A stretch of 44,838 nucleotides of DNA from Sedimentibacter sp. (GTDB lineage Bacteria; Bacillota; Clostridia; Tissierellales; Sedimentibacteraceae): positions 496,247 through 541,084 of the forward strand of contig NZ_DAMASY010000001.1 in assembly GCF_032080165.1 (NCBI RefSeq), given 5' to 3'. Both the position numbers and the translations under genes were made by a program. The first letter of the stretch is position 1. Every line of letters begins with the position of its first letter. Of this stretch, positions 1,443 to 43,249 are shown piece by piece. The notes below the pieces were generated by a model that did no database searches, had not been told where the DNA came from, and saw nothing but the letters and a program-made list of their open reading frames with translations.

Positions 1443-1454
1443 GAGGAATTTACT

Positions 1455-2297: not shown

Positions 2298-2298
2298 G

Positions 2299-14890: not shown

Positions 14891-15148
14891 GTGTATATGT
14901 ATCCTGATAATTTAAAGGCCAAAGCAACATTATGGCTATGGGAATTAAAAGATATAGGAATTATTGGAATCGGTCTTCTTATTTCTGTATTTTCCTTAGC
15001 ACAGCTTGGATTTATGCCACCTATTGTAATAACAGCAGTATATAGCTTTTTAACTATACAATTTGAAGACACAAGCATACTGAATTTCATTCGTTATGCC
15101 TGTGTCTTTTTTCTTTTAAAGCAACAGGTATTTGAATGGAGGTTATAA
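14891..15148 (+). CDS. PrgI/VirB3-like small T4SS membrane protein
   Basis: 85 aa. Pattern PDNLKAKATLWLWELKDIGIIGIGLLISV... with two hydrophobic segments, as in PrgI-family proteins. Lies immediately upstream of VirB4. Confidence 0.5.
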   Translation: MYMYPDNLKAKATLWLWELKDIGIIGIGLLISVFSLAQLGFMPPIVITAVYSFLTIQFEDTSILNFIRYACVFFLLKQQVFEWRL

Positions 15149-15741: not shown

Positions 15742-16003
15742 ATGTTAATAATCTGTAAGTTTATTTGACCTTAGATGGCAGTCGGTGATAGAGTTGCTTA
15801 GTTTGCTCCTTTTGCTCCATTTACTGGTCATAATGCTGCAATAAAAGAAACAGCAAAATTGAGTGATAAGAGATAACACTACAGATTTAGTGAGTAGATG
15901 TACGTAATCAGAAATTCATTTTATAATTCAGTATTTAAAAACTATATCTTAGCATGATGCGTCAAGAACTTGAGATTATTATCCTTGATTTTGCTAAATA
16001 ACA

Positions 16004-16032
16004 TTGACATCATGACATTTAATGATTATAAT
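16004..16032 (+). promoter_or_regulatory. consensus sigma-A promoter (TTGACA - 17 nt - TATAAT)
   Basis: TTGACA at 16004-16009 and TATAAT at 16027-16032 with an exact 17-nt spacer, about 35 nt upstream of the XRE-family gene. Confidence 0.6.
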
Positions 16033-16063
16033 AAAAGGGAAAAATATAATTTGAATACAAGGG

Positions 16064-16285
16064 GTGTATGTCGTGAAGATAAGCTACAAGAAATTATGGA
16101 TAATGCTCATTGAAAAAGACATCTCACCTGCCACACTCAGAAAGGATTTGAATATTGCTTCTGGAACGATGACGAAGCTTCGTCGAAATGAGGAAGTAGC
16201 TCTTTCTGTCCTTTTACGTATATGCGAGTATTTAGACTGTAATATAGGCGATATTTGTGATGCTGTACGAACAGACATTGGTTAA
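16064..16285 (+). CDS. XRE/Cro-C1 family helix-turn-helix transcriptional regulator
   Basis: HTH signature ISPATLRKDLNIASGTMTKLRRNEE. The start is GTG 16064, or more likely GTG 16073 after AAGGGG. Confidence 0.7.
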   Translation: MYVVKISYKKLWIMLIEKDISPATLRKDLNIASGTMTKLRRNEEVALSVLLRICEYLDCNIGDICDAVRTDIG

Positions 16286-16349
16286 GTTAGTACTTTTGTG
16301 CTGAGAGAAGGGAACGATATGGACTTCAAAAATCAAAAAAGATGACATA

Positions 16350-16715
16350 TTGGAGTTTTTGAAGTTGGGAAGCGGGTTTTTAGGTGATTTAGCTTTTGAA
16401 ATTTATGGTGATAGTCTTAATCAAGTTGGAGAGATAGCATTTTCTGATGCGATTGAAATTGGAATCGAAAATACCATTGATTCTCTTTACGAGGCAAATG
16501 TTGATGACAAGGAAATTCTACGTATATTCAGTGAGCAGTGGAGAATTAGAATGGAGGATGTTGAGGATTGCCTTGTTTGGGAAAAGAGGAAATCAGCTAT
16601 CCGATCATTGAAACAATATTTGAAACTACAAGGATTCACCAAGGGCGAAATCGATCAGTTTATAAAAACTAACCGTGCAATATTTAAGATAGGACATAAT
16701 AAAGAACTGTGGTAG
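16350..16715 (+). CDS. hypothetical acidic cytoplasmic protein (121 aa)
   Basis: ORF with TTG start and no recognisable motif. Co-oriented between the regulator and the zinc-ribbon genes. Confidence 0.35.
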   Translation: MEFLKLGSGFLGDLAFEIYGDSLNQVGEIAFSDAIEIGIENTIDSLYEANVDDKEILRIFSEQWRIRMEDVEDCLVWEKRKSAIRSLKQYLKLQGFTKGEIDQFIKTNRAIFKIGHNKELW

Positions 16716-16785
16716 CTAAGAAGAAATCCTCAAAAGCTAATGAAAGCTGTCCAAGAAAAATAAACTATGTTGGAGGAATGGGATA

Positions 16786-17247
16786 ATGTCATTTTGCACA
16801 AATTGTGGCAGGGAATTGAGCGAGGAATTTGAGTTTTGCCCAGAGTGTGGTACATGTACTTCTCGCATAGAACAAGATAATCCGTTTTCTTGTTTTAATA
16901 ACCAGTCGGTTCATAAACAGTGCCCCAGTTGCGGCGAGTTAATGTCTGAAGATATGTTTTATTGTTTAGGGTGTGGATATCATTTCAAGAATATAGCTAC
17001 TAAAGGATCAAGTGAGGATCTCAACGTAGTCGTTTATAGAGCAAAGACGATGAATGGCACTTGGAAAAATAAATGGGTGTCGTTGTTGCTATGTATTTTC
17101 TTGGGGTGGTTAGGGGCACATAAATTCTATGAAGGAAAATTGATTATAGGACTAATATACCTATTCACTTTAGGGTTATTTGGAATAGGTTGGCTTGTCG
17201 ATATTATTCGGTTATCTTTTAAGCCTAATCCATATCAAGTTAAATAG
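16786..17247 (+). CDS. zinc-ribbon + TM2-domain membrane protein
   Basis: AGGAATGGG RBS. Two CxxC pairs: CTNCG...CPECG and CPSCG...CLGCG. C-terminal TM2-domain signature LLLCIFLGWLGAHKFYEGKLIIGLIYLFTLGLFGIGWLVDII. Confidence 0.7.
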   Translation: MSFCTNCGRELSEEFEFCPECGTCTSRIEQDNPFSCFNNQSVHKQCPSCGELMSEDMFYCLGCGYHFKNIATKGSSEDLNVVVYRAKTMNGTWKNKWVSLLLCIFLGWLGAHKFYEGKLIIGLIYLFTLGLFGIGWLVDIIRLSFKPNPYQVK

Positions 17248-17260
17248 TGGAGGTGTTATT

Positions 17261-18202
17261 GTGATATTTTGTAATAATTGCGGAGAGAAAGTAATTGACG
17301 GTGCTAAATTCTGCCAAAAATGCGGTGTTCCTACTCATGAGACATCTTCTAATCACGAAAGTCAACGGCAGCAAGAATACGCTGGAAAAAGTTATAAATG
17401 TCCAAACTGCGGTGAAATCTTAAAGTCGTTTGTGACCAATTGTCCGTCCTGTGGATTTGAATTGCGAGGTACGAAAACCACCAGTGCCGTTAGGGAATTT
17501 GCAGTTAAACTGGAGGCGATAGAGGCTCACAGAGAACATACGAAACCAGCAGGGATGTTTAATTATAGGCATCTACTGGAGATTTCAAAAACAGACCAGC
17601 AAAAAATAAATCTCATCCAGAATTTTTCTTTTCCAAATACTAAAGAGGATATGCTGGAATTTATGATTCTCGCGACTTCTAATATATATACATCCACATT
17701 AATAGGAGATGGTAAGGTAACTGAGAAAGCTATATCGAAGGCGTGGGACTCCAAAATAAAACAAGTGTACGCAAAAGCAAAAAATACATACATCGACGAT
17801 CCTGATTTCTCAAAAATACAGGATTTGTATAACTCGTATCATATTGACGCAAAGAAACATAAAAAGAAAAATATCATATACTTGATTGGATTTATTGGAC
17901 TTATTTTACTATTTATTTTTGGGCCCTTTATCTTAATAGCTAACGACCAAAAAAATGATTACAAGAAGGAAGAAACAAGATTAGAGTCTATTGTTATTGA
18001 AATCGATGACGCATTGGGAAAAGGCGAATACAAACGTGCATTGATGAATGCTGAATTGATGGAATATAATGGCTATAATAAGGAACGTGATAGTTACTGG
18101 GATGTTCGCCAGAGATATCTAATCGAGGAAATCCTACATGAAGCAGAGAAACACGGTGTTGAACTGTATTATACTCCACCCGCGGAAGAAGCAGAAGAAT
18201 AG
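17261..18202 (+). CDS. double zinc-ribbon protein with a central TM helix (YdjG/YdjH-like)
   Basis: GTG start after GGAGGTG. CNNCGEK...CQKCG and CPNCGE...CPSCG. TM helix IIYLIGFIGLILLFIFGPFILIA, then a coiled, acidic C-terminus. Confidence 0.6.
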   Translation: MIFCNNCGEKVIDGAKFCQKCGVPTHETSSNHESQRQQEYAGKSYKCPNCGEILKSFVTNCPSCGFELRGTKTTSAVREFAVKLEAIEAHREHTKPAGMFNYRHLLEISKTDQQKINLIQNFSFPNTKEDMLEFMILATSNIYTSTLIGDGKVTEKAISKAWDSKIKQVYAKAKNTYIDDPDFSKIQDLYNSYHIDAKKHKKKNIIYLIGFIGLILLFIFGPFILIANDQKNDYKKEETRLESIVIEIDDALGKGEYKRALMNAELMEYNGYNKERDSYWDVRQRYLIEEILHEAEKHGVELYYTPPAEEAEE

Positions 18203-18373
18203 TATGATTCGTCATCTAATGCAGGGATAGTAGTGGGGTTTGTTATAGGCTTAAGGATGGTATGCAACCCAAGTTGGATACTATCAAAGAAAGTATAAAT
18301 AAATGTGATTGTACCACAAACGGAGAAGAATCAGGGTATTATCTAAAGATAATGTGGTGAAAGGAGATTAAAT

Positions 18374-29174: not shown

Positions 29175-31931
29175 ATGGCAAGAATTATTCTGAAGTGCCC
29201 GTACTTAAAAAGTGGAACGAAAAAAACTTCAGCTCATCTATCCAATCTTGTAACTTATATGGCTACCAGAAATGGTGTGAAAAAATTAACTGTGGAAAAT
29301 AAAAATCTTCCTTTTACTCAAAAGCAAGAGAAGCTTATAAATCAGATTATAAATGAATTTCCAAATACCAAAAACATATTTGAATACGAAGATTATGTTA
29401 AGAACAGAACCATTGAAAATGCATCGGATTTTATTTCAATTGCATTAGAACAAAACCTTGATAAAATTAATAAGCGAGAAAACTATGTCGATTATATTGC
29501 AAACCGGCCAAGGGTTGAAAGAATGGGTACGCATGGCTTGTTTACAGGTGGCGATGATGAAATTGTACTAAGCAGAATTTCAGAAGAAGTTGCTAATCAC
29601 ACAGGAAATGTGTGGACTCCCATAATTTCATTAAGGCGAGATGATGCCATACGTACAGGATTTGATAACGCTGAAGCCTGGCACAATATGTTATCCTATT
29701 ATGCACCAGAGATTGCGGAAAGTATGAAAATTCCTGTTGAAAACTTTAGGTGGTATGCAGCTTTTCATAATGAGAGTCACCATCCACATATTCATATGAT
29801 TTGCTATTCCGTTAACCCGATAGATGGATATCTAACGAAAAAGGGCATTGAAAAAATGAAGTCAGGTCTTGTAAAAAATATCTTCAAAAATGAGATGCAA
29901 TTAATTTATGCTGAACAGAGCCAAAGACGAGATAGGGTAAAAGCCGAGAGTAAAGAAATGCTTTTACAGCTTATTCAGGAGATGAAAATAGGAACGATTC
30001 AGAATACACAAATAGAGAAATTATTTTTAAATTTGACAGAGAGGTTGAAACATACCAAAGGCAAAAGAGTGTATGGATATTTGCAACCAAGTGTGAAAGC
30101 AATTGTTGATGAAATTGCAGATGAACTTTCCAAAGAAGAAAAAGTGTCTAAAGCTTATGAACTGTGGTATGAAATGCGAAACGAAGTGCTGAACAGTTAT
30201 ATGGATGAACCTTCAGAGCCACTACCATTATCAAAGCAGAAGGAATTTAAATCCATAAAAAATATAATTATTGCTGAGGCAGATAAACTTAGCAAAGGAG
30301 AAATTAGTTTTGTTGAAATTGAGAATATTGATACCTTTCTTTATAACAATGATTTTGCAGAATCAGATAACCCTGAAGTTGTTGAAGATACTGTAGATTT
30401 TGAGGTAATGGAAGATAACAATGCTGACGGGTTAGATACAGGACACATTTATGTGAAATGGACTAACGAGTATAAAATGGCTCGTGAGTATTTGTTTGGT
30501 ACAGATGAAATAGAACAGAATTTTAAAGTAACACTAGAATTATTTACGGAAGAATCAGTAAAAGGTAATGCTCTTGCGATGTTTGATATTGGTAGAATCT
30601 ATTCGGATGGTCTTGGTGTAGAAATCGATATGGACAAAGCTAATAATTATTATAAAAAGGCTCTTTCTAGATTTCAAAAAGTTGAATCACAAAAAGCATG
30701 GGAATATACAGAGTATCGTATTGGAAAGATGTATGCGCAAGGTCTTGGAACAGAGAAAGACTTAAAAACAGCAGCTTATTGGTTTAATTTATCTGCAGAA
30801 AAGAAATATAAGTATGCTCAGTATTCTCTTGGTGGTTTATATTACCGTGGGCAAGGAGTGGAACAAAATTTTCAAACATCCTTTTCATTGTATTTAAAAT
30901 CAGCAAATCAAGGGTTTCCTTATGCAGATTTTGAAGTTGCTAAAATGTATCGTGACGGTACTGGTATTGATAAAGATGCAAATGAAAGTAATCATTATTT
31001 TGAAAAAGCCTTTGTAGGTTTTGAAAAATTAGAAAAGCAAGGTTGTGATGATAAGATACAATACAGGTTGGGATGGATGCTTCAAAATGGAATTGGTACA
31101 AATAGAGATATTGCAAAAGCAAAAGAGTATTTTGGTAAGTCTGCAAAATTTGGAAACATTTTTGCCTGTTATTCATTAGCTAAGATAATACTTGAAGAAG
31201 ATAAACCAACTAATGAAGAAGTGAAAAAAGCAATTGATTATATGCATATAGCTTCAAACAGTGGGAATAAGTTCGCACAATACTCTCTCGGTAGAATTTA
31301 TCTGGAGGGTAAACATACCGCGAAAGATATTAATAAAGCAATAACATTATTAACTTTATTGGCTGAACAAGATAATGAGTTTGCAGCATATAAGTTAGGA
31401 ATGATTTATTTAAAAGATGAAGAAGTTACAAAGGATATAAATAAAGCAATTGCATTTATAACGCAATCAGCTGAAAAAAATAATGAATGGGCAAGTTATC
31501 AGCTAGGAAAATTGTACTTGATGGGCGTGGATATTCCCAAGGATACCGAAAAAGCGATTGAGTATCTTACAAAGTCAGCAGAACAGGGAAATCAATTTGC
31601 TCAGTATGTTCTTGGAAAGTTATTTCTGATTGGAAAGGATGTTCCGAAAGATAAAGAAACAGCAGTAAAATTTTTTACTCTATCGGCAGAGCAAGGAAAT
31701 GAGTATGCAAAATTTTTTCTTGAAAACATAGATAAGTTTCGAGAACCATCAGTAGGGTTATGTACATCTCGAGTGCTTCATCATATGAGTAAAATATTTG
31801 AGGATAATATACCGCTTAATAAATCTAAGGTAGGATTAAAAATTGATAGTAAACTACTTAGAAAGCTTAAAGGAAAGAAAATAGCTCAAGGACATAAGAG
31901 AGATGATCATGAAGAGAGGATGACTCTTTAA
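29175..31931 (+). CDS. conjugative relaxase (MobA/VirD2-type His triad) with C-terminal array of Sel1-like repeats
   Basis: Histidine triad HNESHHPHIHMI. A conserved N-terminal Tyr candidate (CPYLKSG). About eight C-terminal repeats of the form A.YxLGxxYxxGxGVxxDxxKAxxYxxKSA. Confidence 0.6.
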   Translation: MARIILKCPYLKSGTKKTSAHLSNLVTYMATRNGVKKLTVENKNLPFTQKQEKLINQIINEFPNTKNIFEYEDYVKNRTIENASDFISIALEQNLDKINKRENYVDYIANRPRVERMGTHGLFTGGDDEIVLSRISEEVANHTGNVWTPIISLRRDDAIRTGFDNAEAWHNMLSYYAPEIAESMKIPVENFRWYAAFHNESHHPHIHMICYSVNPIDGYLTKKGIEKMKSGLVKNIFKNEMQLIYAEQSQRRDRVKAESKEMLLQLIQEMKIGTIQNTQIEKLFLNLTERLKHTKGKRVYGYLQPSVKAIVDEIADELSKEEKVSKAYELWYEMRNEVLNSYMDEPSEPLPLSKQKEFKSIKNIIIAEADKLSKGEISFVEIENIDTFLYNNDFAESDNPEVVEDTVDFEVMEDNNADGLDTGHIYVKWTNEYKMAREYLFGTDEIEQNFKVTLELFTEESVKGNALAMFDIGRIYSDGLGVEIDMDKANNYYKKALSRFQKVESQKAWEYTEYRIGKMYAQGLGTEKDLKTAAYWFNLSAEKKYKYAQYSLGGLYYRGQGVEQNFQTSFSLYLKSANQGFPYADFEVAKMYRDGTGIDKDANESNHYFEKAFVGFEKLEKQGCDDKIQYRLGWMLQNGIGTNRDIAKAKEYFGKSAKFGNIFACYSLAKIILEEDKPTNEEVKKAIDYMHIASNSGNKFAQYSLGRIYLEGKHTAKDINKAITLLTLLAEQDNEFAAYKLGMIYLKDEEVTKDINKAIAFITQSAEKNNEWASYQLGKLYLMGVDIPKDTEKAIEYLTKSAEQGNQFAQYVLGKLFLIGKDVPKDKETAVKFFTLSAEQGNEYAKFFLENIDKFREPSVGLCTSRVLHHMSKIFEDNIPLNKSKVGLKIDSKLLRKLKGKKIAQGHKRDDHEERMTL

Positions 31932-32164: not shown

Positions 32165-33568
32165 ATGGGTATATATATTCATTTTACAAAGGAACAAAAA
32201 GAAAAAGCAAATAGTGTTGATCTTGAAGAATTTCTAAGAATGCAGGGTGAAACACTACTTCCATCAGGCAGAGAAAAAAGACTAAAAAGTAATCATAGTA
32301 TTACGATTCGAGGAAACGAATGGTTTGACCATGCTACAAAAGAAGGTGGTCTTGCTATTGATTTCGTTCAGAGTTTTTATGGATTAGCTTTCCCAGATGC
32401 AGTAACAATGCTACTTGGCGGAGAACAAGGAGAAGTATATTCTATAGTAAAGAAGAAAGAAGAAGTCAGAAAACCGTTTGAATTACCACCTAAGAACAAT
32501 GAAATGCGTAGAGTGTTTGCTTATTTGATTAAGCACAGACTCATTGATCGAGATGTGGTTAGCTTTTTTGTAAAGGAAAAACTCATCTATGAAAGTAAAG
32601 AGCAATCAAAAGATAGAATCAAAGAGTATCATAATGCCATTTTTGTAGGTTATGATGAAAATGGTATTCCTTGTCATGCCCATAAAAGAGGTATTTACAC
32701 AGAGGGAAAAAGTTATAAAGGGAATATTAACAGTAGCAATCCTTGTTATAGTTTTCATTATCTCGGAATTAGTGATAGAATCTATGTATTTGAGGCACCT
32801 ATTGATATGCTTTCCTTTATTACGATACATAAAGATAAAGATTGGAAAAAGCACAGCTATGTTGCTCTTTGTGGAGTGTCTGAGCAAGCATTATTTAAAA
32901 TGCTTGAAATCAATCCTAATTTAAGTCATGTTAGTTTATGCTTAGATCATGATACTGCCGGAATTGAGGCAAGTGAAAAAATAGTAGATATGTTGAAAGA
33001 AAAAAATGTTGGTTATAATAGATTACTTTCCAAACAAAAGGATTGGAATGAGGATTTGAAAGCAGGGCAAAATTTAACTGCAATTCCTTCAGAAGAACAT
33101 CCACAGCATCTTATAAAAGATGAAATTTGTAATGAAATATTGAAAATTATAAAAGAATTAGAAAAGATTGAATTGAAGTATGAGGATGGCTTAAAGGCTT
33201 TTCAAAAGACTCAAAAAACAAATGTATTACAGGCTGAAGCTATGAAAATGGCATCAGCTGTTTTTTTATGTCTTACATTAAAAGAATTCAGACAACTTGG
33301 AATTACTATGACTTCGGAAGGAATTATTCAGAAAATGAGTGAAGAGTTTCGCGCATATCAAAACAGGCGCAAGTATTATTTAACACTTTTTGATGTAGAA
33401 ACCGAACTGTCGACATTCAAAAATCAAAATGGAATTTTTTCTGAATCAGATAAAGCTTTAACTGCCAAAAAGTATGAGAAGATAGCATTGGAACTTTTAA
33501 AGTCAACTATCAGGTTAGAACTAGAACACCAAAAACAAGTCCAAAATCCGGCATTCAAAATGGCGTAA
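32165..33568 (+). CDS. DUF3991 + Toprim domain protein (ICE TraC-like primase)
   Basis: Toprim acidic motifs VFEAPIDMLSF and LCLDHDTAG. The N-terminal zinc-binding-like region is typical of DUF3991/Toprim primases encoded next to VirD4 on Firmicutes ICEs. Confidence 0.6.
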   Translation: MGIYIHFTKEQKEKANSVDLEEFLRMQGETLLPSGREKRLKSNHSITIRGNEWFDHATKEGGLAIDFVQSFYGLAFPDAVTMLLGGEQGEVYSIVKKKEEVRKPFELPPKNNEMRRVFAYLIKHRLIDRDVVSFFVKEKLIYESKEQSKDRIKEYHNAIFVGYDENGIPCHAHKRGIYTEGKSYKGNINSSNPCYSFHYLGISDRIYVFEAPIDMLSFITIHKDKDWKKHSYVALCGVSEQALFKMLEINPNLSHVSLCLDHDTAGIEASEKIVDMLKEKNVGYNRLLSKQKDWNEDLKAGQNLTAIPSEEHPQHLIKDEICNEILKIIKELEKIELKYEDGLKAFQKTQKTNVLQAEAMKMASAVFLCLTLKEFRQLGITMTSEGIIQKMSEEFRAYQNRRKYYLTLFDVETELSTFKNQNGIFSESDKALTAKKYEKIALELLKSTIRLELEHQKQVQNPAFKMA

Positions 33569-33623
33569 CATACGAGGCATAGGGTATATTCCTGTGCCTT
33601 ATTTTATAGAAAGGTCGTGTAAG

Positions 33624-35462
33624 ATGAATTCACAAGTATATATGTTAATGGCTGCTGCGGCTATTATGTTTTCAGTTATTGGAGGATTATCTTTGCTTGC
33701 TCATTATTATACCCTAAACGGAATTAAATCGAAGACTGTAGGAGATGGACAACATGGTGTTGCAAGATTTTCTACAAAAAAAGAAATTGAAGAAACTTAT
33801 CAGCACATTCCATTTGATGTTAAAGCCTGGAGGAGTGGAATGCATCTTCCTGTAGATGAAAAAGGAAATGCGATACAAGGCTTGGTAGTGGGCTGTAAAG
33901 GAAATAAAGGATCTGTTACCGGACTAATTGACACAGGTGATGTACATTGCCTTATGATTGGTGCTGCTGGTGTTGGAAAAACAGCATTTTTTCTATACCC
34001 AAACCTTGAGTATGCCTGCGTAAGCGGTATGTCTTTTATTACTACTGATACTAAGGGTGACCTTGCAAGAAATTACGGAACTATAGCAAAAGAGAATTAC
34101 GGATACAATATTGCGGTCATTGATTTAAGAAACCCTACAAGAAGTGATGGAAATAATCTTTTGCATCTTGTAAATAAATATATGGATTTATACCGAGCAG
34201 ATAACAATAGTTTTTCTGCAAAAGCAAAAGCCGAGAAATATGCAAAAATTATATCTAAAACAATTATCTCAACCGATGGAAATAATGCGGCGATGGGGCA
34301 AAATGCATTTTTCTATGATGCAGCCGAAGGACTCCTTACTGCGGTGATTCTTTTAATTGCAGAATATCTTCCACCAGTAGAGGAGGATGGACATGTGGTA
34401 GATAAAAGACACATTATTTCTGTTTTTAAAATGGTTCAAGATTTAATGGCACCAAGTAATATTAAAGGGAAAAGTCAATTCCAATTATTGATGGATAAGC
34501 TTCCGCCTAACCATAAGGCAAAGTGGTTTGCTGGAGCAGCTCTTAATTCTGCTGAACAAGCAATGGCATCTGTTCTTTCGACAGTGCTTTCTAGGCTTAA
34601 TGCTTTTCTTGATTCCGAGATGGAGCAGATACTTTGTTTTGATACTGCTATAGATGCGGAGACTTTCTGTAAAGAAAAGTCTGCAATCTTTCTTATACTC
34701 CCGGAGGAAGATAACACCAAGTATTTTATGGTATCACTGTTCTTACAACAGTTATATCGTGAAATGCTCACTGTGGCAGACGAGAATGGTGGTAAGCTCC
34801 CTAATAGGGTAATGATTTATGCAGATGAAATCGGAACAATTCCTAAAATAGAATCTTTTGAAATGATGCTATCTGCAGGTAGATCACGTAGAATTTCCGT
34901 GATACCGATTATTCAATCCTTTGCACAGCTCGATAAAAATTATGGAAAGGAAGGTAGCGAAATAATAACTGATAATTGTCAGTTGACAATCTTTGGAGGA
35001 TTTGCTCCAAATTCTGAAACTGCACAGGTACTGTCAAAAGCACTTGGTAGCAGAACAGTTATGAGTGGAAGTATCAGTAGAGGGAAAAGTGATCCATCAC
35101 AAAGTTTACAGATGATAGAAAGACCACTGCTTACTGCAGATGAACTCAAGTCACTTCCAAAAGGTAACTTTGTAGTGATGAAAACAGGTGTACATCCAAT
35201 GAAAACAAGACTCAGATTGTTTTTAGATTGGGGAATTACCTTTGAAAAACCATATGAAACAGAAGAAAAATCACATCGTAAAGTTTATTATGCTAATAAA
35301 GAGGAATTAGAAGAAAACATTATGAGGCAAACAATGGCTTTGGAAATAGAGGAAGAAGATGAAACAGCAGAAGAAAGCAAACGAGGTGGTACGTTACATT
35401 CTACTACTATGGAGCAATCAAAAGAATCTATTTCTAAACGCAAGACAATGATAAGAACATAG
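33624..35462 (+). CDS. VirD4/TraG-family type IV coupling protein
   Basis: N-terminal TM helices. Walker A MIGAAGVGKTAF. Walker B-like MIYADEIG. ATG 33624 after GAAAGG; the longer GTG-started ORF overlaps an upstream hairpin. Confidence 0.8.
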   Translation: MNSQVYMLMAAAAIMFSVIGGLSLLAHYYTLNGIKSKTVGDGQHGVARFSTKKEIEETYQHIPFDVKAWRSGMHLPVDEKGNAIQGLVVGCKGNKGSVTGLIDTGDVHCLMIGAAGVGKTAFFLYPNLEYACVSGMSFITTDTKGDLARNYGTIAKENYGYNIAVIDLRNPTRSDGNNLLHLVNKYMDLYRADNNSFSAKAKAEKYAKIISKTIISTDGNNAAMGQNAFFYDAAEGLLTAVILLIAEYLPPVEEDGHVVDKRHIISVFKMVQDLMAPSNIKGKSQFQLLMDKLPPNHKAKWFAGAALNSAEQAMASVLSTVLSRLNAFLDSEMEQILCFDTAIDAETFCKEKSAIFLILPEEDNTKYFMVSLFLQQLYREMLTVADENGGKLPNRVMIYADEIGTIPKIESFEMMLSAGRSRRISVIPIIQSFAQLDKNYGKEGSEIITDNCQLTIFGGFAPNSETAQVLSKALGSRTVMSGSISRGKSDPSQSLQMIERPLLTADELKSLPKGNFVVMKTGVHPMKTRLRLFLDWGITFEKPYETEEKSHRKVYYANKEELEENIMRQTMALEIEEEDETAEESKRGGTLHSTTMEQSKESISKRKTMIRT

Positions 35463-35476
35463 GGAGGTGTTGAAGT

Positions 35477-35734
35477 TTGAGTTTCTTTGGAAATTTATAT
35501 CGAGAGGAACTTCCTTCTCGTGCAAAAATTGTTTATATGTATTTGAAAGACAGAAGCAATGCAGAGGGAGAATGTTGGCCGGCTATTAAAACCATTGCAA
35601 AAGATACTTCGTTGTCAAAGAGTACAGTAAAAAGAGCCATAGCAGATTTAATACACTGCGGTTTATTAACAAAGGAATCACGCTATCGGGAGAATGGCAG
35701 TAATTCTTCAAACCAATATTTTTTGAAAAAATAA
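35477..35734 (+). CDS. small helix-turn-helix protein (winged-helix/replication-initiator-like N-domain)
   Basis: AGGGAGGTG RBS, TTG start. ECWPAIKTIAKDTSLSKSTVKRAIADLIHCGLL is an HTH. Confidence 0.5.
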   Translation: MSFFGNLYREELPSRAKIVYMYLKDRSNAEGECWPAIKTIAKDTSLSKSTVKRAIADLIHCGLLTKESRYRENGSNSSNQYFLKK

Positions 35735-35939
35735 AAAAGAGTATACAATGTCTATGTGGAAGGGATAGTTTTCCGCCAAGGTACTATTATGCTTTTTTTG
35801 TGGACTGAGTTGGAGTTCACTATGAACTTACCAGAAGGAATCACTCTAATAATTTATTTAACAACAGAGAAATAATAATATATCTGTTATATATGTTTAC
35901 CTGTTCTGGCGTTAATAATAAATATATTTTAGATAACTA

Positions 35940-36156
35940 TAAAGGACACAGGTATTGGAATCCCAAATGAAGACTTAAAATATATTTTTGAAAGGTTTTA
36001 TAGAAGCGATTTATCAAGGAGTCGTCAAACCGGGGGAACCGGTATTGGACTTACAATTACAAAGGCATTGGTAGAAGTACATGGAGGAACTATTAAAATC
36101 CATAGTGAAGTTGGAAAGGGAACTAACGTAATAGTTGAATTTAATATATAAATTAT
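35940..36156 (+). pseudogene. orphan 3'-terminal fragment (about the last 70 codons, HATPase_c G1/G2 boxes) of a sensor histidine kinase gene; diverged duplicate of 42968..43187
   Basis: About 215 nt align collinearly with the 3' end of the intact HK gene, with about 9 mismatches. Homology begins abruptly at taaaggacac and ends just after the shared TAA stop. No upstream coding continuation exists. Confidence 0.75.
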
Positions 36157-36413
36157 TATTAATATTATACAAATTCTTTGTAAAACAGAATCACTATGTA
36201 ATTATTTCTACTCTGTTTTTTATCTATACATTGTAGCTATCTGTAATTCTTATAGTGAAGATGCTATTATGTGCAGATTAAATGTACAAATCATCTAAGT
36301 ATAAACTTAATATAATAATTAAAAAATTTTTTGACAAATATAATAAACGATATTACAATGAGTTAAATATATAAAACATATATGAATAGTATGTAATTAA
36401 AGGAGCGAACAAA

Positions 36414-36938
36414 ATGGCACATATTACACAAGTAAATTATGAAAATGCTTCCCCAGACGTAAAAGAACAATTTAATGATCAAATAAGGAGACATGGTAGA
36501 ATTACTAACATGAAAAAGACACTTTTACATTCCTTACCAGCATTTCATACATTAATGGAATGGTATACACTAGCTGAAGAAGTTGAAAAGTTCTTAGGTA
36601 AGAGAGCTGTAAATTTCTATAGCTATGCAATTTCAACACAGAATAGCTGTTTGATTTGCTCTACTTTCTTTGGTAAGATTTTAGAAGATTTAGATATAGA
36701 CTTTGACAACTTCTCATTTACAGAAGAAGAGTCCGATATTATTGAATACGGTCAGTATTTAGTAAAAGATCCAGGAAATATACCAGATAAATTATTTGAT
36801 AAACTAAAAAAGAGATATACAGAGGAGCAAATAGTATTATTAACAGCCTTTGGAAGCATGATGATCGCAACAAATCTTATAAATACAGCTTTAAAAGTTG
36901 AACTAGATGATATTTTAGTTCCATATACTAGGGGGTAA
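36414..36938 (+). CDS. carboxymuconolactone decarboxylase (CMD/AhpD-like) family protein
   Basis: AAGGAG RBS. Size and cysteine-containing core (NSCLICSTF) are compatible with the CMD family. Tentative. Confidence 0.45.
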   Translation: MAHITQVNYENASPDVKEQFNDQIRRHGRITNMKKTLLHSLPAFHTLMEWYTLAEEVEKFLGKRAVNFYSYAISTQNSCLICSTFFGKILEDLDIDFDNFSFTEEESDIIEYGQYLVKDPGNIPDKLFDKLKKRYTEEQIVLLTAFGSMMIATNLINTALKVELDDILVPYTRG

Positions 36939-36942
36939 TGAC

Positions 36943-37749
36943 ATGACAAGAGATTTTGAAAATAAAACAGTATTTATAACAGGAGCAGCAAAAGGGCAAG
37001 GTAAAGGAGTCGCACTTGCATTTGCAAAACAAGGTGCAAATATTATTGCCTTTGATCTTGGAGAGAAGATTGAATACCCAGCTTATAATAGATCTTCTAA
37101 TGAAGAACTTGAAGTACTAAAGGAAGAAGTTATTGCACTAGGAGGTAAAATTGAAATCTTTGCAGGCGATGTTAGAAAGGCTAAGGATGTTCAAAATGCA
37201 GTAGAAAATGGTGTGAAATCTTTTGGGACAATTGATATCCTATTTAGTAATGCAGGTATCTGTGCTTATGGTCTATCCCATGAATTAACAGAAAATGAAT
37301 GGGATACAATGATTGATATCAATCTAAAGGGTAGCTGGCTAGTATCAAAATATGTAATTCCATATTTTTTAAAGCAAAAAAGTGGAGTTATTATATATAA
37401 TTCATCAGTTGCCGGTTTAAGAGGAATGAATCGTATTTCTCACTATGCAGCTTCAAAACATGCATTAGTAGGACTCGCTAAATCACAAGCTATTGAACTA
37501 GCTCCACATGGAGTGAGAGTATTAACAATTCATCCAACTGGGGTTAATACACCAATGAATGATGGTTTAGCTGAAATGGAAGGATCTACACCAATAGAAA
37601 TCGCCGAAAGGTCTGCAGGTAACCTTATACCAGTACCTTGGGTTGAAGTAGAAGATGTGGCAAATTCGGTATTATTCCTTGCAAGTGATAAAGCAAGATA
37701 TATAACTGGAAGCCAATATCTACTAGATGCGGGATTGTTAACAAGATAA
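36943..37749 (+). CDS. SDR-family NAD(P)-dependent oxidoreductase
   Basis: Cofactor motif ITGAAKGQGKG, NSS, catalytic YAASKHAL (YxxxK). Confidence 0.8.
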   Translation: MTRDFENKTVFITGAAKGQGKGVALAFAKQGANIIAFDLGEKIEYPAYNRSSNEELEVLKEEVIALGGKIEIFAGDVRKAKDVQNAVENGVKSFGTIDILFSNAGICAYGLSHELTENEWDTMIDINLKGSWLVSKYVIPYFLKQKSGVIIYNSSVAGLRGMNRISHYAASKHALVGLAKSQAIELAPHGVRVLTIHPTGVNTPMNDGLAEMEGSTPIEIAERSAGNLIPVPWVEVEDVANSVLFLASDKARYITGSQYLLDAGLLTR

Positions 37750-37820
37750 TAACCTTATGCTCAATTAAAAATAAAATGTAACACTAATAAAATGACAATA
37801 ATTTTTGGAGGAAGATAGAC

Positions 37821-38642
37821 ATGAAAAATAAAAAAGGTATCTTAAGTATAATTCTAGTATTAATATTAACATTTGCTTTAAGCGCTTGCGCTACTGAAAA
37901 TAAAGAAGTTGTAAGTGGAGATAAGACTGAAAAAACAGAAACGATAAAAGTAGGTACAATGGGTACTTATAACCCATTTAGTTTTGAAGACAAAGACGGA
38001 AAATTAACAGGATATGACTTAGAAGTTTTAAGACTACTTGAAAAACAAGATAGTAGTTTAAAATTTGAATTCGTTGCAGCACCTTGGGATAGCTTATTTG
38101 TTGGTTTAGATTCTAATAAGTTTCAAATGCTAGCAAACCAGATTACCACAAACCCTGATAGAGAAGCTAAATACTACTTAACTCAGAATAGATACTTCAC
38201 TTGTGTTGCAGAAATCATTGTTAGACAAGGAACGACTGGAATAAATTCTTTAAAAGACCTTGAAGGAAAGAAAATAGGTCTTACAGTAGGAGATTCCTTC
38301 ACAAGACTAGTTGAAGATTGGAATACAGCAAATGGCAACATCTTAACAATAGTTTACTATGAGCAAGGTATTGAAACAATTCTACAGGATCTTGTAAGTG
38401 GTAGAATTGATGCAACAGTAAATGATCCTATTGTTGCAAGAGATAAAGCAAAGGTTCAGGGATTGGCTGTTGAACCTGTAGGAGAAAGAATAGCAGCAGA
38501 TCCAACTTACTTTATATTTAGAAAAGATGAAGATGGTAAAGAATTAAGAGACAAAGTAGATGCAGCATTAAAGAATATTATAGACGATGGTTCTTTAGCT
38601 GAATTATCAATTGAATGGTTCGGAGTAGACTATACAAAATAG
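37821..38642 (+). CDS. amino-acid ABC transporter substrate-binding lipoprotein
   Basis: Lipobox LSAC after the signal peptide. SBP_bac_3-like sequence. Confidence 0.8.
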   Translation: MKNKKGILSIILVLILTFALSACATENKEVVSGDKTEKTETIKVGTMGTYNPFSFEDKDGKLTGYDLEVLRLLEKQDSSLKFEFVAAPWDSLFVGLDSNKFQMLANQITTNPDREAKYYLTQNRYFTCVAEIIVRQGTTGINSLKDLEGKKIGLTVGDSFTRLVEDWNTANGNILTIVYYEQGIETILQDLVSGRIDATVNDPIVARDKAKVQGLAVEPVGERIAADPTYFIFRKDEDGKELRDKVDAALKNIIDDGSLAELSIEWFGVDYTK

Positions 38643-38658
38643 AAAGTGGGCGATGTGA

Positions 38659-39369
38659 ATGGATAAGTTATTGGACTTCTCTTATATGATAGAATCAATT
38701 CCTGCTATCGCTAAGGGAATTCCAATTTCCTTAGCCATAGCCTTGGTTGCATTCTTTATAGGGCTTATTATTGGACTCTTTGTTGCATTAGTTAAGATTT
38801 ATCGCGTGCCAGTTCTATATCAAATTTCTAGCTTATATGTATCATTTATAAGAGGTACCCCATTATTAGTGCAAATATTTTTATCATACTATGGCATTCC
38901 ATTAGTAATACGTTATATTAATTCTCGATATAGCCTCAACTGGGATGTTTCCTATATTCCAGCAATATACTTTATTTATGTTGCTTTCTCACTAAATTCA
39001 GGTGCATACCTTTCAGAGACTATTAGATCAGCTATACAAGCGGTTAATAAGGGTCAGATGGAAGCTTGTCACTCAGTAGGCATGACAACATCACAAGGCT
39101 TAAGACGAATAATTTTACCACAAGCAGTAATAGTTGCTTTGCCTAATATTGGTAACCATTTTGTATCATTATTAAAAGATAGTTCTTTAGCATTTGCAGC
39201 CTCTGTTCCAGAAATTATAGGGCAAGCAAAGATAATTGCAGGTAGAACTTCACAATTCTTTGAAGTTTACATCGTTGCAGCACTTATATACTGGGGAATT
39301 TGTATTGTTTTCGAAAGATTGCTCGTATATCTTGAAAATAGATTCCGTAAGTTTGAAAGAGGTGTTTAG
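38659..39369 (+). CDS. amino-acid ABC transporter permease
   Basis: Polytopic membrane protein with an EAA-like loop, located between the SBP and ATPase genes. Confidence 0.8.
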   Translation: MDKLLDFSYMIESIPAIAKGIPISLAIALVAFFIGLIIGLFVALVKIYRVPVLYQISSLYVSFIRGTPLLVQIFLSYYGIPLVIRYINSRYSLNWDVSYIPAIYFIYVAFSLNSGAYLSETIRSAIQAVNKGQMEACHSVGMTTSQGLRRIILPQAVIVALPNIGNHFVSLLKDSSLAFAASVPEIIGQAKIIAGRTSQFFEVYIVAALIYWGICIVFERLLVYLENRFRKFERGV

Positions 39370-40107
39370 ATGATTGAAATAAAAAACCTAAATAAATATT
39401 ACAAAAAGAATCATGTTTTAAAAGATATTAATCTTAAGGTTGAAGAAGGTAGCACAGTAGCATTAATAGGCCCTAGTGGCTCAGGAAAGTCTACTTTGCT
39501 TCGTTGTATTAATCTGTTAGAAACACCAACGGACGGAGAAATCTATTTAGATGATATTGTAGTTAATGCACATAAAATAACTAAGCAGAGTATACATGAG
39601 GTTCAGCAAAATACAGGAATGGTTTTTCAAAATTATAATTTATTTGCTAATAAAACTGCACTTGAAAATATAGCAGAAGCCTTAATTGTAGTAAAAAAGA
39701 TATCTAAGAAGGAAGCATATAAACAAAGTGAATTATTGTTAGAAAAAGTTGGACTCTCTGATAGAGCAGATCATTTTCCATCTGGATTATCTGGAGGACA
39801 ACAGCAGCGTGTAGCTATTGCAAGAGCGCTAGCAATTAATCCAAAGGTTATATTATTTGATGAACCAACTTCTGCATTAGATCCAGAACTCGTAGATGAA
39901 GTACTTCAGGTTATAAAAAATGTTGCAAAAGAAAAAATTACCATGATAATTGTAACTCATGAGCTTGAATTTGCAAGGGATGTGGCCGATAAGATTATTT
40001 TCCTGGCAGACGGAGTAATTGTTGAAGAAAATAACTCAAAAGATTTCTTTAACAAACCTAAAGAAGAACGAACAAAACAGTTTCTAGAAAGATTTAGAAG
40101 AGTTTAA
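39370..40107 (+). CDS. amino-acid ABC transporter ATP-binding protein
   Basis: Walker A GPSGSGKST, signature LSGGQQQRVAIARAL, Walker B ILFDEPTSALD. Confidence 0.85.
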   Translation: MIEIKNLNKYYKKNHVLKDINLKVEEGSTVALIGPSGSGKSTLLRCINLLETPTDGEIYLDDIVVNAHKITKQSIHEVQQNTGMVFQNYNLFANKTALENIAEALIVVKKISKKEAYKQSELLLEKVGLSDRADHFPSGLSGGQQQRVAIARALAINPKVILFDEPTSALDPELVDEVLQVIKNVAKEKITMIIVTHELEFARDVADKIIFLADGVIVEENNSKDFFNKPKEERTKQFLERFRRV

Positions 40108-40149
40108 ATCTCCTCATATTTACACTATCCTTTAATTGAATTAAATTTA

Positions 40150-40195
40150 TAAGCTGATAAAGTAATTTAAGATATCAATTGTCAGCTTTTTTATT
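40150..40195 (+). terminator. possible terminator after the ABC operon (long imperfect hairpin + TTTTTT)
   Basis: Arms aagctgata...tgtcagctt followed by a T-run. Confidence 0.35.
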
Positions 40196-40465
40196 TAATT
40201 GGAAATTTTCAATTTTCTATTATTCTATTAACAGGAACCAATAATGTTATGCCCAAGCTTATCCAGATTATGATGAATATACTCATGTTGCTATTTCTTT
40301 AGATAGAGAACTTAATTATATGTACAGATTTGGAAGAAGAGATACTCATTATCCTTTTATATAATTGTTATATCATAATCATATAAAACTTACATAAGTT
40401 CTCCACATTTTTATTATATATTACATGTTAATTATATAACTTAATAAATTGAAAGGTAAAGTAAG

Positions 40466-40870
40466 ATGTTAAGCAAAATGACATTATGGGATAAAATATT
40501 AGTCTGCTCACTTATTATAATAAGTTTTGCATGGTTAGGTTTATCTGTATTATTTAATACAAAAGAAGGAACAAAAATTGTTGAAATTAAAGTATATGGA
40601 AATATGGTAGAAAAATTATCTTTAACTGAAGATACTTCAAATATCTACAGCTTTGAATTTGAAGAAAACACTGGGTATATAGAAGTTAAGGATGGTGCAG
40701 TAAGGATGTTAGAAATGGATAAAGACATATGCCCTGAAGGTATATGTTCAAAAACGGGGTGGATAAAGGAAGAGTATGAAACTATTGTTTGTATGCCCAA
40801 TGGAATAAGTGTTAACATAAAGAATAATGAAAATAAAGAAAAAGATAACGACATAGATGTGATTGCATAA
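40466..40870 (+). CDS. NusG domain II (DUF1312)-containing membrane-anchored protein
   Basis: N-terminal TM helix. GYIEVKDGAVRMLEMDKDICPEGICSKTGWIKEEYETIVCMPNGISVNIKN matches the NusG_II pattern. Confidence 0.6.
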   Translation: MLSKMTLWDKILVCSLIIISFAWLGLSVLFNTKEGTKIVEIKVYGNMVEKLSLTEDTSNIYSFEFEENTGYIEVKDGAVRMLEMDKDICPEGICSKTGWIKEEYETIVCMPNGISVNIKNNENKEKDNDIDVIA

Positions 40871-40871
40871 A

Positions 40872-40898
40872 AATAAGACCTCTTAGGTCTTATTTTTT
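40872..40898 (+). terminator. rho-independent terminator (aataagacc-tctta-ggtcttatt + T-run)
   Basis: Perfect 9-bp stem with a 5-nt loop, followed by TTTTTT. Confidence 0.7.
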
Positions 40899-41140
40899 CA
40901 TTGGTTATATCTTTACGGGGGACTAAATTGCTTAATAATTATAACAATTCGAAATCCTTAAATTAATTGTACATAATAATTATGGAGAAATTATGAAGAA
41001 AAACACATTAAACATATAAATTTTCTTCATAATAACTACATGATTTATTATTAAAATAATAGTGTATAATATAACCAAATATCATATAATTTTGGTAGTA
41101 TCAAATATTAGATTAAAAAGAAAATTATAAGGTGAAAAAA

Positions 41141-41830
41141 ATGAATGAGAAAATATTAGTTGTTGATGATGAGATTAACCTTTTAAATGTCATAAAAGAT
41201 TATCTTTTGCGAGAAACCTATGAAGTTTTTACTGCAAGCCGAGGAAATAAGGCTATAGAGCTATTTCATGAAATAGAACCTGATTTTATAATTCTTGATT
41301 TAATGCTTCCGGATATTTCAGGCGAGGAAATATGCAAATTAATCAGAAAGGAATCGGATGTGCCTATTTTAATGTTAACAGCAAAAAGCAGTGAAGATGA
41401 TAAAGTTACAGGTTTATATATAGGCGCAGATGATTATTTGACAAAGCCTTTCAGTCCTAGAGAACTGGTTGGCAGAGTAAGAGCAATTCTTAGAAGAACT
41501 AAAGGCAATTCTGAATTAACTGATGCTTTAGAATTTAATGATAAAGATTTGTTTATTGATATTCCTAAACACATAGTTAAAAAGGCAGGACAAGAAGTAA
41601 GTTTAACACCAAATGAATTTAAGGTATTATTGACCCTAGCGCAAAATCCACAGAAAGTTTTCACTAGAAGTCATTTGGTAAGTTTAGCTTTTGGCTATGA
41701 TTTTGAAGGATTTGATCGTACCGTTGATACTCATATTAAAAATTTGAGACAAAAAATTGAGGATAATGTAAAAGAACCTAAATATATTGTAACTGTTTAT
41801 GGTGTCGGATATAAGTTTGAGGGAGAATAA
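41141..41830 (+). CDS. OmpR-family response regulator
   Basis: AAGGTGA RBS. Receiver motifs VVDDE and LDLMLPD, and conserved K. Winged-helix C-terminus YIVTVYGVGYKF. Confidence 0.85.
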   Translation: MNEKILVVDDEINLLNVIKDYLLRETYEVFTASRGNKAIELFHEIEPDFIILDLMLPDISGEEICKLIRKESDVPILMLTAKSSEDDKVTGLYIGADDYLTKPFSPRELVGRVRAILRRTKGNSELTDALEFNDKDLFIDIPKHIVKKAGQEVSLTPNEFKVLLTLAQNPQKVFTRSHLVSLAFGYDFEGFDRTVDTHIKNLRQKIEDNVKEPKYIVTVYGVGYKFEGE

Positions 41831-41831
41831 G

Positions 41832-43187
41832 ATGATAAAAATAAGCGAACAGTTACGAAAGTATTTTGTAACAATTTCAATATTATCAATTGCATTTATT
41901 ACAATTACTTCAAATCTTAGTATAAATTATTTTTTTTCAGATTATATTAGGGATTCAAGAAGCAGAGATGATTTAAAAGTAGTTCAGTATGTGGAACGTG
42001 TATTCAGCGATTATAAAGAATTAAATTCTCATTCTTTAATGAATATAATGCATTATGCTTTCAGTGAAGATGTTGTAATTCAAATAAGGGACAAGAATAA
42101 TAATATAAGTTGGAACAGTAGTACATTTGGAATAATGTATGGGATGGTAGATGAATACAGCAGTGATGAAGGTAAATTTTCGTTTAGAAGTTATCCTTTG
42201 ACATACAATAACTCACAAATAGGAACTATAGATGTTGGACGACCAAAAAGCATTATATCTAATATAGAAGATGAAAAGTTTTTAATTACAATAAACAGTA
42301 TTTTTGCAATTGCATCAATTTTGACATTGATTATTGCTTTTCGTTCAAGTAATAGTATATCTAAGAAGTTTTTAAATCCTATATATGTTATTAAGGAAAA
42401 TGCAAAACTAATTGAACAAGGAAAATATAAAAACCTAAAGGAAGTAGAAACAAACACTGTTGAGTTATATGAATTATCCATATCAGTTAAAGAACTTGCA
42501 GAAAGGTTGAATAGCCAAGAATCTCTAAGAAAAAGAATGACTACAGATATAGCTCATGAGCTGAGAACACCTTTGGCTGCAATTCGAAGTCATATAGAAG
42601 CTTTTCTGGATGGAGTATGGGAACCTAATGATGAAAAGCTATCTGTTATTCATGGAGAAATAATAAGGTTAACAAAATTAATTAATGAATTATCTGAATT
42701 ATCAATTGTGGAAGATGATGAGATAAACCTGAAATTAAGCAATGTAGATATATCTTCAACATTGAATAATATAATAGAAAGCTATGAGCCTATGTTTTTA
42801 GATAAAAATATTAATATAGATAAAAATATTCAAAATGATGTTAATTTTATGGGAGACATTGATTATCTAAAACGTATTTTCGTTAATATTATTTCTAATG
42901 CAATTAAGTATACAAATGAAAATGGGTCTGTCAGTGTTTCTTTAGAGCAAATAAAAGATAAAATTAAAATAATTGTAAAGGACACAGGTATTGGAATCCC
43001 AAAAGAAGATTTAAAATATATTTTTGAAAGGTTTTATAGAAGCGATTTATCAAGGAATCGTCATACCGGGGGAACTGGTATTGGACTTACAATTACAAAG
43101 GCATTGGTAGAAGCACATGGAGGAACTATTAAAATCGATAGTGAAGTTGGAAAGGGAACTAACGTAATAGTGGAATTTAATAGATAA
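41832..43187 (+). CDS. sensor histidine kinase (HisKA + HATPase_c), partner of the upstream regulator
   Basis: GAGGGAG RBS. TM segments. H-box HELRTPL, G1 DTGIGIP, G2 [19 protein letters not shown]. Confidence 0.8.
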   Translation: MIKISEQLRKYFVTISILSIAFITITSNLSINYFFSDYIRDSRSRDDLKVVQYVERVFSDYKELNSHSLMNIMHYAFSEDVVIQIRDKNNNISWNSSTFGIMYGMVDEYSSDEGKFSFRSYPLTYNNSQIGTIDVGRPKSIISNIEDEKFLITINSIFAIASILTLIIAFRSSNSISKKFLNPIYVIKENAKLIEQGKYKNLKEVETNTVELYELSISVKELAERLNSQESLRKRMTTDIAHELRTPLAAIRSHIEAFLDGVWEPNDEKLSVIHGEIIRLTKLINELSELSIVEDDEINLKLSNVDISSTLNNIIESYEPMFLDKNINIDKNIQNDVNFMGDIDYLKRIFVNIISNAIKYTNENGSVSVSLEQIKDKIKIIVKDTGIGIPKEDLKYIFERFYRSDLSRNRHTGGTGIGLTITKALVEAHGGTIKIDSEVGKGTNVIVEFNR

Positions 43188-43203
43188 ATTATAACCCCTT
43201 ATA

Positions 43204-43249
43204 CTAATAAATCAAAATTAGTTATAAGGGGTATTTTTTTAGCCCGATG
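43204..43249. terminator. bidirectional terminator hairpin between convergent HK and mrp genes
   Basis: Arms ccccttatactaat / attagttataagggg (14-15 bp, one bulge) followed by TATTTTTTT. Confidence 0.7.

Follow-up and report, generated by a model that had tools for sequence, protein, structure and literature searches.

Conjugative elements (ICEs) such as ICESt1/ICESt3 in fda, together with tRNA-targeting islands, integrate into the 3′ ends of genes and provide a substitute gene end, with a partial duplication of the gene end being present at attL/attR. The locus described here lies within a 44,838-nucleotide stretch of Sedimentibacter sp. DNA (referred to throughout as the window), in which the 3′ end of an intact histidine kinase (HK) gene (R2) has a diverged counterpart (R1) close to the right-hand end of an ICE. 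R1 resembles the duplications of the ICESt1/ICESt3 type in being a diverged 3′-end direct repeat, stop codon included, at the edge of an element, with homology ending right after the stop. It is unlike them in that R1 and R2 do not bracket the ICE, the intact copy being 7 kb downstream and on the wrong side, in that no integrase was found, and in that the target of this ICE family is rumA.

The nearest known system is that of the rumA-targeting serine-integrase dICEs (Tn1549/CTn5-like) of Clostridia and streptococci (Ambroset et al., 2016, PMC4701971), in which a serine integrase is encoded at the attR end and the repeats are 2–21 bp in length (PMC4701971). Features held in common with these elements are a VirD4-type coupling protein (homologues of which are named ‘CD1115 family’ by NCBI), a MobL-type relaxase, a T4SS and ArdA. 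In addition, relatives of the window's ICE have on their left a rumA gene with an element-supplied 3′ end, and one of them (L090) has large serine recombinases far to the right. Loss of the recombination module, resulting in an immobile remnant, appears to be a further likeness. In contrast to the Tn1549/CTn5-like dICEs, the copy in the window is without an integrase or identifiable attR and possesses a Tad-like pilus module. The streptococcal rumA elements also differ from L090 in the number of recombinase ORFs (one and three, respectively). A third comparison is with ordinary pseudogene fragments associated with decaying elements, which R1 matches in its lack of a start codon and promoter, its excess of nonsynonymous changes, its fixation in the clade and the small deletions nearby. 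It differs from these in being 96% similar to a neighboring intact gene, which points to a recent paralogue or to gene conversion.

The HK 3′-end repeat

R1 (35940–36156) and R2 (42976–43192), both on the plus strand, were found to be identical at 208 of 217 positions in an ungapped comparison at an offset of 7036. The nine substitutions are located at positions 35968, 35974, 36021, 36028, 36040, 36078, 36101, 36136, and 36147. The pair constitutes by far the largest repeat family detected by repeat search within the 44.8-kb window. An initial annotation of this DNA had reported a duplicate of the HK 3′ end of about 215 nt with some nine substitutions, including the G1/G2 boxes and the stop codon, and this description is borne out by the alignment. 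The intact copy had been placed at 42968–43187; its start was 8 nt off, and the correct coordinates are those given above.

R1 is in the HK frame and encodes part of a HATPase_c domain with the G1 box (DTGIGI), FERFYR and the G2 box (GGTGIGL), followed by a stop codon at 36149–36151. The match to R2 continues for 5 nt past the stop, R2 consisting of the matching 3′ end of the intact gene with the same 5 nt included. In-frame stops occur just 5′ of R1 (TAG at 35931–35933) with no start codon, and no plus-strand ORF in the ORF list of the window covers it, confirming the earlier statement that the fragment has no upstream ORF. The equivalent of R1 in L007 has been called as a 72-aa HATPase_c ORF. 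The absence of a start codon and promoter, the upstream in-frame stops and the relaxed constraint (the latter seen in small counts) are those of a pseudogene fragment.

It had also been stated that the homology starts and ends abruptly. This holds for the right edge, beyond which strong homology is gone (9 of 44 positions identical for 36157–36200), and slightly less so for the left. There, identity falls sharply at 35940, from 96% to 59–69%, but the register is kept and weak in-register similarity to the HK gene extends to ~35914–35901 (18/26 identical for 35914–35939 and 23/39 for 35901–35939). The similarity at 35901–35939 (plus strand) has a permutation p of ~5e-4, with 23 of the 43,797 39-mers in the window matching the segment left of R2 as well, and the sequence concerned is identical in all copies of R1. 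It may represent an unconverted, paralogue-level part of the HK fragment.

Gene content and right end of the conjugative element

Positions 1–35872 (plus strand) are occupied by the ICE, as determined by Pfam scans and by alignment with four relatives (L087–L090), its left part being cut by the window edge. It encodes Tad-like pilus genes, TrbL_5, a VirB4-like ATPase and NlpC/P60, along with a MobL relaxase with Sel1 repeats (29175–31931), a DUF3991-Toprim protein (32165–33568), a VirD4-type coupling protein (T4SS-DNA_transf/TraG-D_C; 33594–35462) and a small HTH_36 protein (35477–35734). A conjugation module is present, with the MobL relaxase, the coupling protein and the T4SS genes (TrbL_5, VirB4-like ATPase, NlpC/P60) all present. 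To the left of the window the element continues for at least 13.9 kb (L002, L080), with ArsR-HMA-P-type ATPase-CopZ cargo, a 229-aa ORF, ArdA, a methyltransferase, YodL and an SLH surface protein.

Among the scanned ORFs of the window (a scan that passed over some small ORFs), none was found to encode a tyrosine or serine recombinase or a DDE transposase, and the same holds for the called genes in the 13.9 kb to its left. No integrase gene was thus seen next to either copy of the repeat. No tRNA genes, which would be candidate att sites, occur in the window. Taken over window positions 1–35872, L002 and L080, the ICE is ~50 kb long and without a recognizable integrase.

A number of other features of the element were observed. 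Two overlapping ORFs that lie in different frames (13151–14888) together make up a C-5 cytosine DNA methyltransferase, with the N-terminal motifs in 13151–13813 and the C-terminal motifs in 13467–14888; this is either a frameshifted pseudogene or a sequencing error. The MobL-type relaxase (29175–31931) is fused to a C-terminal array of ~8 Sel1 repeats, an architecture also present in L087 and L088. Within the transfer region, positions 15136–21000 form a block of higher G+C content (up to 0.43) that encodes zinc-ribbon/TM2 proteins and a Band_7(SPFH)-GYF protein and looks like inserted cargo. The surface protein is a 1,393-aa SLH/PKD protein with internal tandem repeats of ~237 nt (window 1–779 together with L002 5144–9325); it is broken into two ORFs in MAG contig L003, and two DUF6133 genes flank it.

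The right end of the element could be located by comparison. The four relatives, whose coupling proteins are 81–90% identical and which lie in unrelated contexts, align with the window through the HTH_36 gene and a further ~140 nt of conserved non-coding sequence containing the motifs CCGCCAAGG, GTGGAC, CAGAAGGAATCACT and ACAGCAGAGAA. The backbone homology then stops at window position ~35865–35880, at ...ACAGAGAAA (~35865–35872). R1 starts ~65 nt past this end (~35872), or ~30–40 nt if the weak homology is counted, and is therefore situated at the ICE edge. A short AT-rich joint (35873–35900) with no similarity to the relatives separates the final conserved base of the ICE from the point at which HK sequence is first recognizable; only 11 of 41 positions are identical to the HK gene for 35860–35900. 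This joint is presumed to be a deletion or replacement junction. As the large serine integrase that is present in L090 is absent here, the window's ICE is, on sequence comparison, a defective element lacking its right arm and at most a defective member of the rumA-type family.

Related elements and the rumA junction

Six loci with a readable left flank adjoin a rumA-type U5-methyltransferase gene (L027, L078, L079, L016, L014, and L021, the gene being frameshifted in L079), while in L012 and L019 only the conserved rumA 3′ fragment is seen. Conservation among the elements covers the last ~53–70 nt of rumA together with ~150 nt downstream, even where the rest of rumA is only ~34–36% identical, a pattern that is read as the mark of a gene end supplied by the element. 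L078 and L079 are 95–97% identical to the window's ICE, and the presence of rumA at the left end of the latter is suggested by its relatives. The gene end expected there, if the right-hand side of the ICE was lost by deletion, would be ...ACGTTGAGAGTATAATTCTGATGACG. The MAG contigs L080 and L082 start exactly at the element-supplied sequence and consequently show nothing of the left flank in the clade. A search of IMG/VR yielded two relatives of the ICE and four contigs with the element-supplied rumA end; no match to an R1 26-mer was obtained in IMG/VR, and no match to window positions 35400–36420 in plasmid records.

In a comparison of L078 with L079, the region of 98.7% identity was observed to start in the middle of rumA (4078–5290) and not at an att crossover. 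This suggests that the ICE, or its flank, may also spread by homologous recombination.

Past the backbone, the relatives carry differing cargo. In L090, three large serine-recombinase ORFs (domains Resolvase + Recombinase + Zn_ribbon_recom) come after an ImmA-like gene, and the cargo of L087 and L089 includes type I restriction-modification systems accompanied by a tyrosine recombinase of the hsdS-shufflon kind. L088 has no recombinase within 9.7 kb after HTH_36, and a missing integrase may therefore not be unusual in this ICE family. In this last element, a Qat-like anti-phage set (KAP NTPase, QatB, QueC-like protein, TatD) was also noted between the relaxase and primase genes (374–5137).

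The right ends of L087–L090 contain no HK fragment, and blastn and tblastn searches of the window and of L087–L090 did not reveal a directly repeated rumA 3′ end at the right ICE edge. Similarly, no third HK-like copy was found at the left end of the ICE in the available left sequence, which stops short of the left junction of the source contig. The initial annotation had taken R1 for a probable integration or recombination scar marking the boundary of an element. Its position at the right ICE edge is upheld by these comparisons, but an att duplication of this ICE is not. The relatives adjoin rumA and not HK, and the repeats published for rumA ICEs are of 2–21 bp as opposed to a 217-bp gene end. 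Moreover, what R1 and R2 bracket is the CMD-SDR-ABC-NusG_II-RR-HK5′ segment, with the ICE wholly to the left of R1.

Distribution and age of the arrangement

The gene order ICE end, R1, CMD-like protein, SDR, ABC transporter, NusG_II, RR, HK, ParA/Mrp (the last on the minus strand) was found in the window and in five further contigs from JGI and NCBI MAG assemblies, one of which (L077) begins inside the last ICE gene. The HK proteins of these five are 90–99% identical to that of the window, which is itself 100% identical to Ga0121003_100001 (over the overlap) and to contigs of MAG GCA_032080785.1. As the order recurs in five further contigs, it is not a chimeric join or other assembly artifact. 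One fragmented MAG contig starts inside R1, at window position 36103, which shows that the 217-bp repeat breaks assemblies.

All six copies of R1 share one left border and one 30-nt left flank, even though the HK proteins differ by up to 10%, and a single event is therefore considered to be their common origin. Between strains, the ICE right end shows 86–97% identity, which makes it as diverged as the neighboring chromosomal genes, and the identity is distributed in mosaic fashion. In the case of L006 and L008, for example, 100% identity runs from the ICE over R1 as far as the SDR gene, within which the two begin to diverge. These patterns fit an ICE and R1 that are old, vertically inherited and immobile, and that have been shuffled by homologous recombination. 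A recent site-specific arrival of the ICE was considered and rejected, given that the ICE is no more identical than its flanks and that its identity is mosaic. None of the six clade loci recovered is free of the ICE. In the ICE-free S. saalensis-like genomes there is one HK 3′ end only, but CMD-SDR-ABC is missing from them as well. Separately, an IS110-family transposase was observed between the ParA/Mrp and HMA genes in L006 and L007 (12470–13633), which is absent from the window.

The native HK unit and the region downstream of R1

The intact gene (41799–43187, plus strand) encodes a sensor histidine kinase of 462 aa with HisKA and HATPase_c domains (Pfam), orthologues of which occur across Sedimentibacter at 84–100% identity; one MAG among the carriers is labeled Aminipila. 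It forms a three-gene unit with a NusG_II-domain protein and an OmpR-type response regulator (40466–41830, plus strand; Pfam). In ICE-free Sedimentibacter saalensis-like genomes, NusG_II-RR-HK (L009) and RR-HK (L010) are found in a chromosomal context, with HK proteins 84–85% identical, and the homology between the window and L009 begins at ~40383. On these comparisons NusG_II-RR-HK is regarded as native to the genus Sedimentibacter. A variant of the kinase (P0094) was also noted that is without the G2 box owing to an internal deletion (…SRNGGTIKID…).

The HK gene is followed by a predicted intrinsic terminator (43193–43240, plus strand), consisting of the hairpin AACCCCTTATA...TATAAGGGGT and a T run, with a folding energy of −18.1 kcal/mol (z −3.9). 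It resembles the terminator after the HK gene of L010 (local alignment score of 40 compared with a shuffle maximum of 28) and is thus taken to be the ancestral type, common to this outgroup. A terminator of this type is absent after R1, where the sequence (36157–36330, plus strand) is unrelated to that downstream of R2 and shows no similarity to the sequences downstream of the outgroup HK genes. In L006, L008, and L077, a hairpin with a T run is instead present ~20 nt after the R1 stop, followed by two further hairpins. A consensus terminator scan, which required at least three G-C pairs in the stem, returned no terminators and folding was applied in its place. The L006 hairpin folds with −15.3 kcal/mol (z −3.3), whereas the fused version in the window (−5.5 kcal/mol) is not significant. 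The window lacks ~180 nt that are present in L006 (4240–4420), L008, and L077, with an AATTA microhomology junction near 36200–36205, and this gap fuses the halves of two terminator hairpins.

Further downstream, a predicted sigma-70 promoter (TTGACA-17-TACAAT; 36331–36359, plus strand), with 11 of 12 matches and also present in L006, precedes an operon encoding the CMD-like protein, the SDR and an amino-acid ABC transporter made up of SBP_bac_3, permease and ATPase (36414–40107, plus strand; Pfam). With its own near-consensus promoter, this operon should be independent of read-through from R1. Pairs of CMD and SDR genes are conserved in 40-odd genomes of Clostridia and Bacilli, several of them with ABC genes, and the operon is widespread and not mobile DNA. 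Across 185,579 GTDB species representatives 47 CMD loci were found, 45 of which lie outside the clade. Only one of the latter has an HK gene within 5 kb of CMD, namely L074 from an unrelated Christensenella MAG, in which the HK gene lies directly upstream. An ancestral HK-CMD arrangement was rejected, as the HK gene of this sole locus is only 28% identical. The proposal that 36157–42967 is itself a recombined-in module does not agree with these distributions, NusG_II-RR-HK and the R2-type terminator being present in ICE-free genomes and CMD-SDR(-ABC) being a widespread operon.

Sequence evolution of R1

The nine differences between R1 and R2 were polarized with the outgroups L009 and L010. Six were assigned to the R1 lineage and three to the intact gene. 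The R1-lineage changes comprise five nonsynonymous ones (K to N, N to S, A to V in EAHGG, D to H, and R to I) and one synonymous, while the intact gene has acquired one nonsynonymous change (Q to H) and two synonymous ones. These ratios (5:1 vs. 1:2), although based on small counts, fit pseudogene decay. Distances between R1 and R2 copies are 4–13 of 211 positions, HK alleles of different strains differ at 0–17, and R1 differs from the outgroup genes at 22–35. Because the R1–R2 distance is within the between-strain range of the HK gene, a foreign donor is not needed to account for the divergence of R1, which looks like the decay of a local copy. The earlier argument that this divergence indicates a copy brought in from another genome is weakened accordingly, more so as three of the nine differences are derived in the intact gene.

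A number of variants are common to R1 copies and intact genes, namely an F-A variant in the R1 of L006 and HK P0010, a terminal Ile codon in the R2 of L005 and some R1 copies, and a T at column 91 in both R1 and R2 of L008. These suggest occasional gene conversion between R1 and intact HK genes. The R1 frame and stop codon are kept in all six genomes. At the R1 stop, a 13-nt tandem duplication (AATTTAATAGATA) was observed in L006 (~4170–4195), L008, and L077, and is absent from the window, L005, and L031.

Origin of R1

R1 is probably an ancient remnant, now inert, as opposed to an att site of this ICE. The more specific history favored here, which is given about an even chance of being correct, is that of one deletion or cargo replacement extending from the boundary between ICE backbone and cargo into a second HK copy. 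R1 would then be the last ~220–250 nt of a second copy of the local HK gene, either a paralogue or a close allele. In the ancestor of the clade, a deletion or cargo replacement would have started at the backbone/cargo boundary and ended inside this second copy, taking with it the cargo, the recombinase gene(s), attR and the 5′ part of the HK copy, and the ICE would have been immobilized through the loss of its recombinase arm and attR. The product would have been a defective ICE followed by a joint of ~30–65 nt, the HK stub, the stub's own terminator and the CMD-SDR-ABC operon. Subsequently, the stub would have decayed, mostly by nonsynonymous changes, and gene conversion between it and the intact copy, at a distance of 7 kb, may have taken place from time to time. 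It is proposed that R1 has no function of its own.

Both the single deletion at the junction and the former existence of a full second HK copy are what we infer from the structure of the locus. The terminator peculiar to R1, the end of homology at the end of the coding sequence and the paralogue-level left edge argue that R1 formerly terminated a complete gene located in another context, and against its being a copied patch. Two proteins of this HK family, K0R07_1651 and K0R07_1913, have the same locus-tag prefix, from which it appears that one Sedimentibacter MAG holds two HK paralogues; this makes a second HK copy plausible. Against the deletion, a left breakpoint exactly at the backbone/cargo boundary would be a coincidence, unless the boundary is a recombination hot spot, and no intact precursor with a full HK gene upstream of CMD was found among the 45 CMD loci outside the clade. 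The initial annotation had set a mobile-element scar against a local deletion, and it is the latter that the evidence favors, with no genome carrying the intact precursor having been found.

It is also conceivable that R1 and CMD-SDR-ABC came as one foreign block from a donor with an HK orthologue just upstream of CMD, the block having been cut inside HK. Several observations would agree with this: CMD-SDR-ABC is absent from this locus in S. saalensis-like genomes, its G+C content is 0.33 compared with 0.26–0.28 for NusG_II-RR-HK, the most similar homologues of the operon beyond the clade come from other Clostridia MAGs, R1 is followed by a terminator of its own and by sequence that differs from the native one, and the blocks of 100% inter-strain identity, from the ICE across R1 into SDR, show that large recombinational transfers occur here. 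Nevertheless, such an origin is unlikely. No HK orthologue followed by CMD was found among the 45 loci outside the clade, and with the nearest CMD locus (L032, 88% identity) homology does not begin until 36385, the stretch between R1 and CMD not being conserved. The donor would, furthermore, have to be a very close relative, since R1 is nearer to the clade HK genes (4–13 differences) than to those of the outgroups (22–35). Somewhat less probable is a true insertion scar, in which a serine-integrase ICE inserted at a secondary site in a second HK copy and its integrase arm was later deleted near attR. Serine-integrase ICEs do use secondary sites inside protein-coding genes, as with CTn5 of C. 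difficile, which occupies an adhesin gene in one strain and rumA in a second (PMC4701971), and R1 is within 65 nt of the end of the ICE backbone; the left flank in the clade is, in addition, not shown by L080 and L082, which start at element-supplied sequence. However, all six loci with a readable flank have rumA (or a frameshifted rumA) at the left, including L078 and L079 with their 95–97% identity to the window's ICE. Two events would be needed, the second of which must delete the integrase gene almost exactly to attR, and 30–65 nt of unrelated sequence would be left to explain between the backbone and the HK homology.

Direct repeats exactly one unit apart, with a novel joint right after the HK stop, are also what a tandem duplication of a 7,036-bp unit (36157–43192) would produce if the first copy was then lost but for its last 217 nt. 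This is judged highly improbable, as a further deletion, roughly as large as the duplication itself, would be required, the position of the joint 5 nt after the stop codon would be a coincidence, and R1's own terminator hairpins and the ~400 nt that follow it in L006, L008, and L077 would have to be the native upstream sequence of CMD. Two complete tandem units are absent in all six genomes. The identity across the left junction, which should be uniform and ~96% after a recent duplication, instead drops to 59–69% in register over the 26–39 nt left of 35940. Least credible, with very little probability attached to it, is the retention of R1 as a silent donor cassette for gene conversion that diversifies the ATP-binding end of the HK. 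If true, R1 would repeatedly rewrite the kinase C-terminus and generate HK alleles in Sedimentibacter populations, as a one-cassette analogue, in a signaling protein, of the cassettes of antigenic variation. Derived variants common to R1 copies and intact HK genes (F-A, the terminal Ile codon) and the frame and stop codon retained by R1 in all six genomes would be in keeping with such a role. Yet there is one cassette only, with few common variants, and no selective rationale is apparent. The changes private to R1 strike conserved residues (A to V in EAHGG, D to H), as in decay, some copies have the 13-nt tandem duplication at the stop (L006, L008, L077), and 217 nt free of indels is unremarkable at 2–5% divergence. 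The deletion or cargo replacement into a second HK copy accordingly stays the favored history, at the strength given above.

Implications

As a consequence, the 217-bp repeat is unsuited to delimiting the ICE or to inferring its target site. R1 and R2 could mediate RecA-dependent loss of the 7-kb segment between them or gene conversion of the HK gene, neither of which would be conceptually new. R1 is a real but ordinary pseudogene stub beside a degraded ICE, a known kind of feature.
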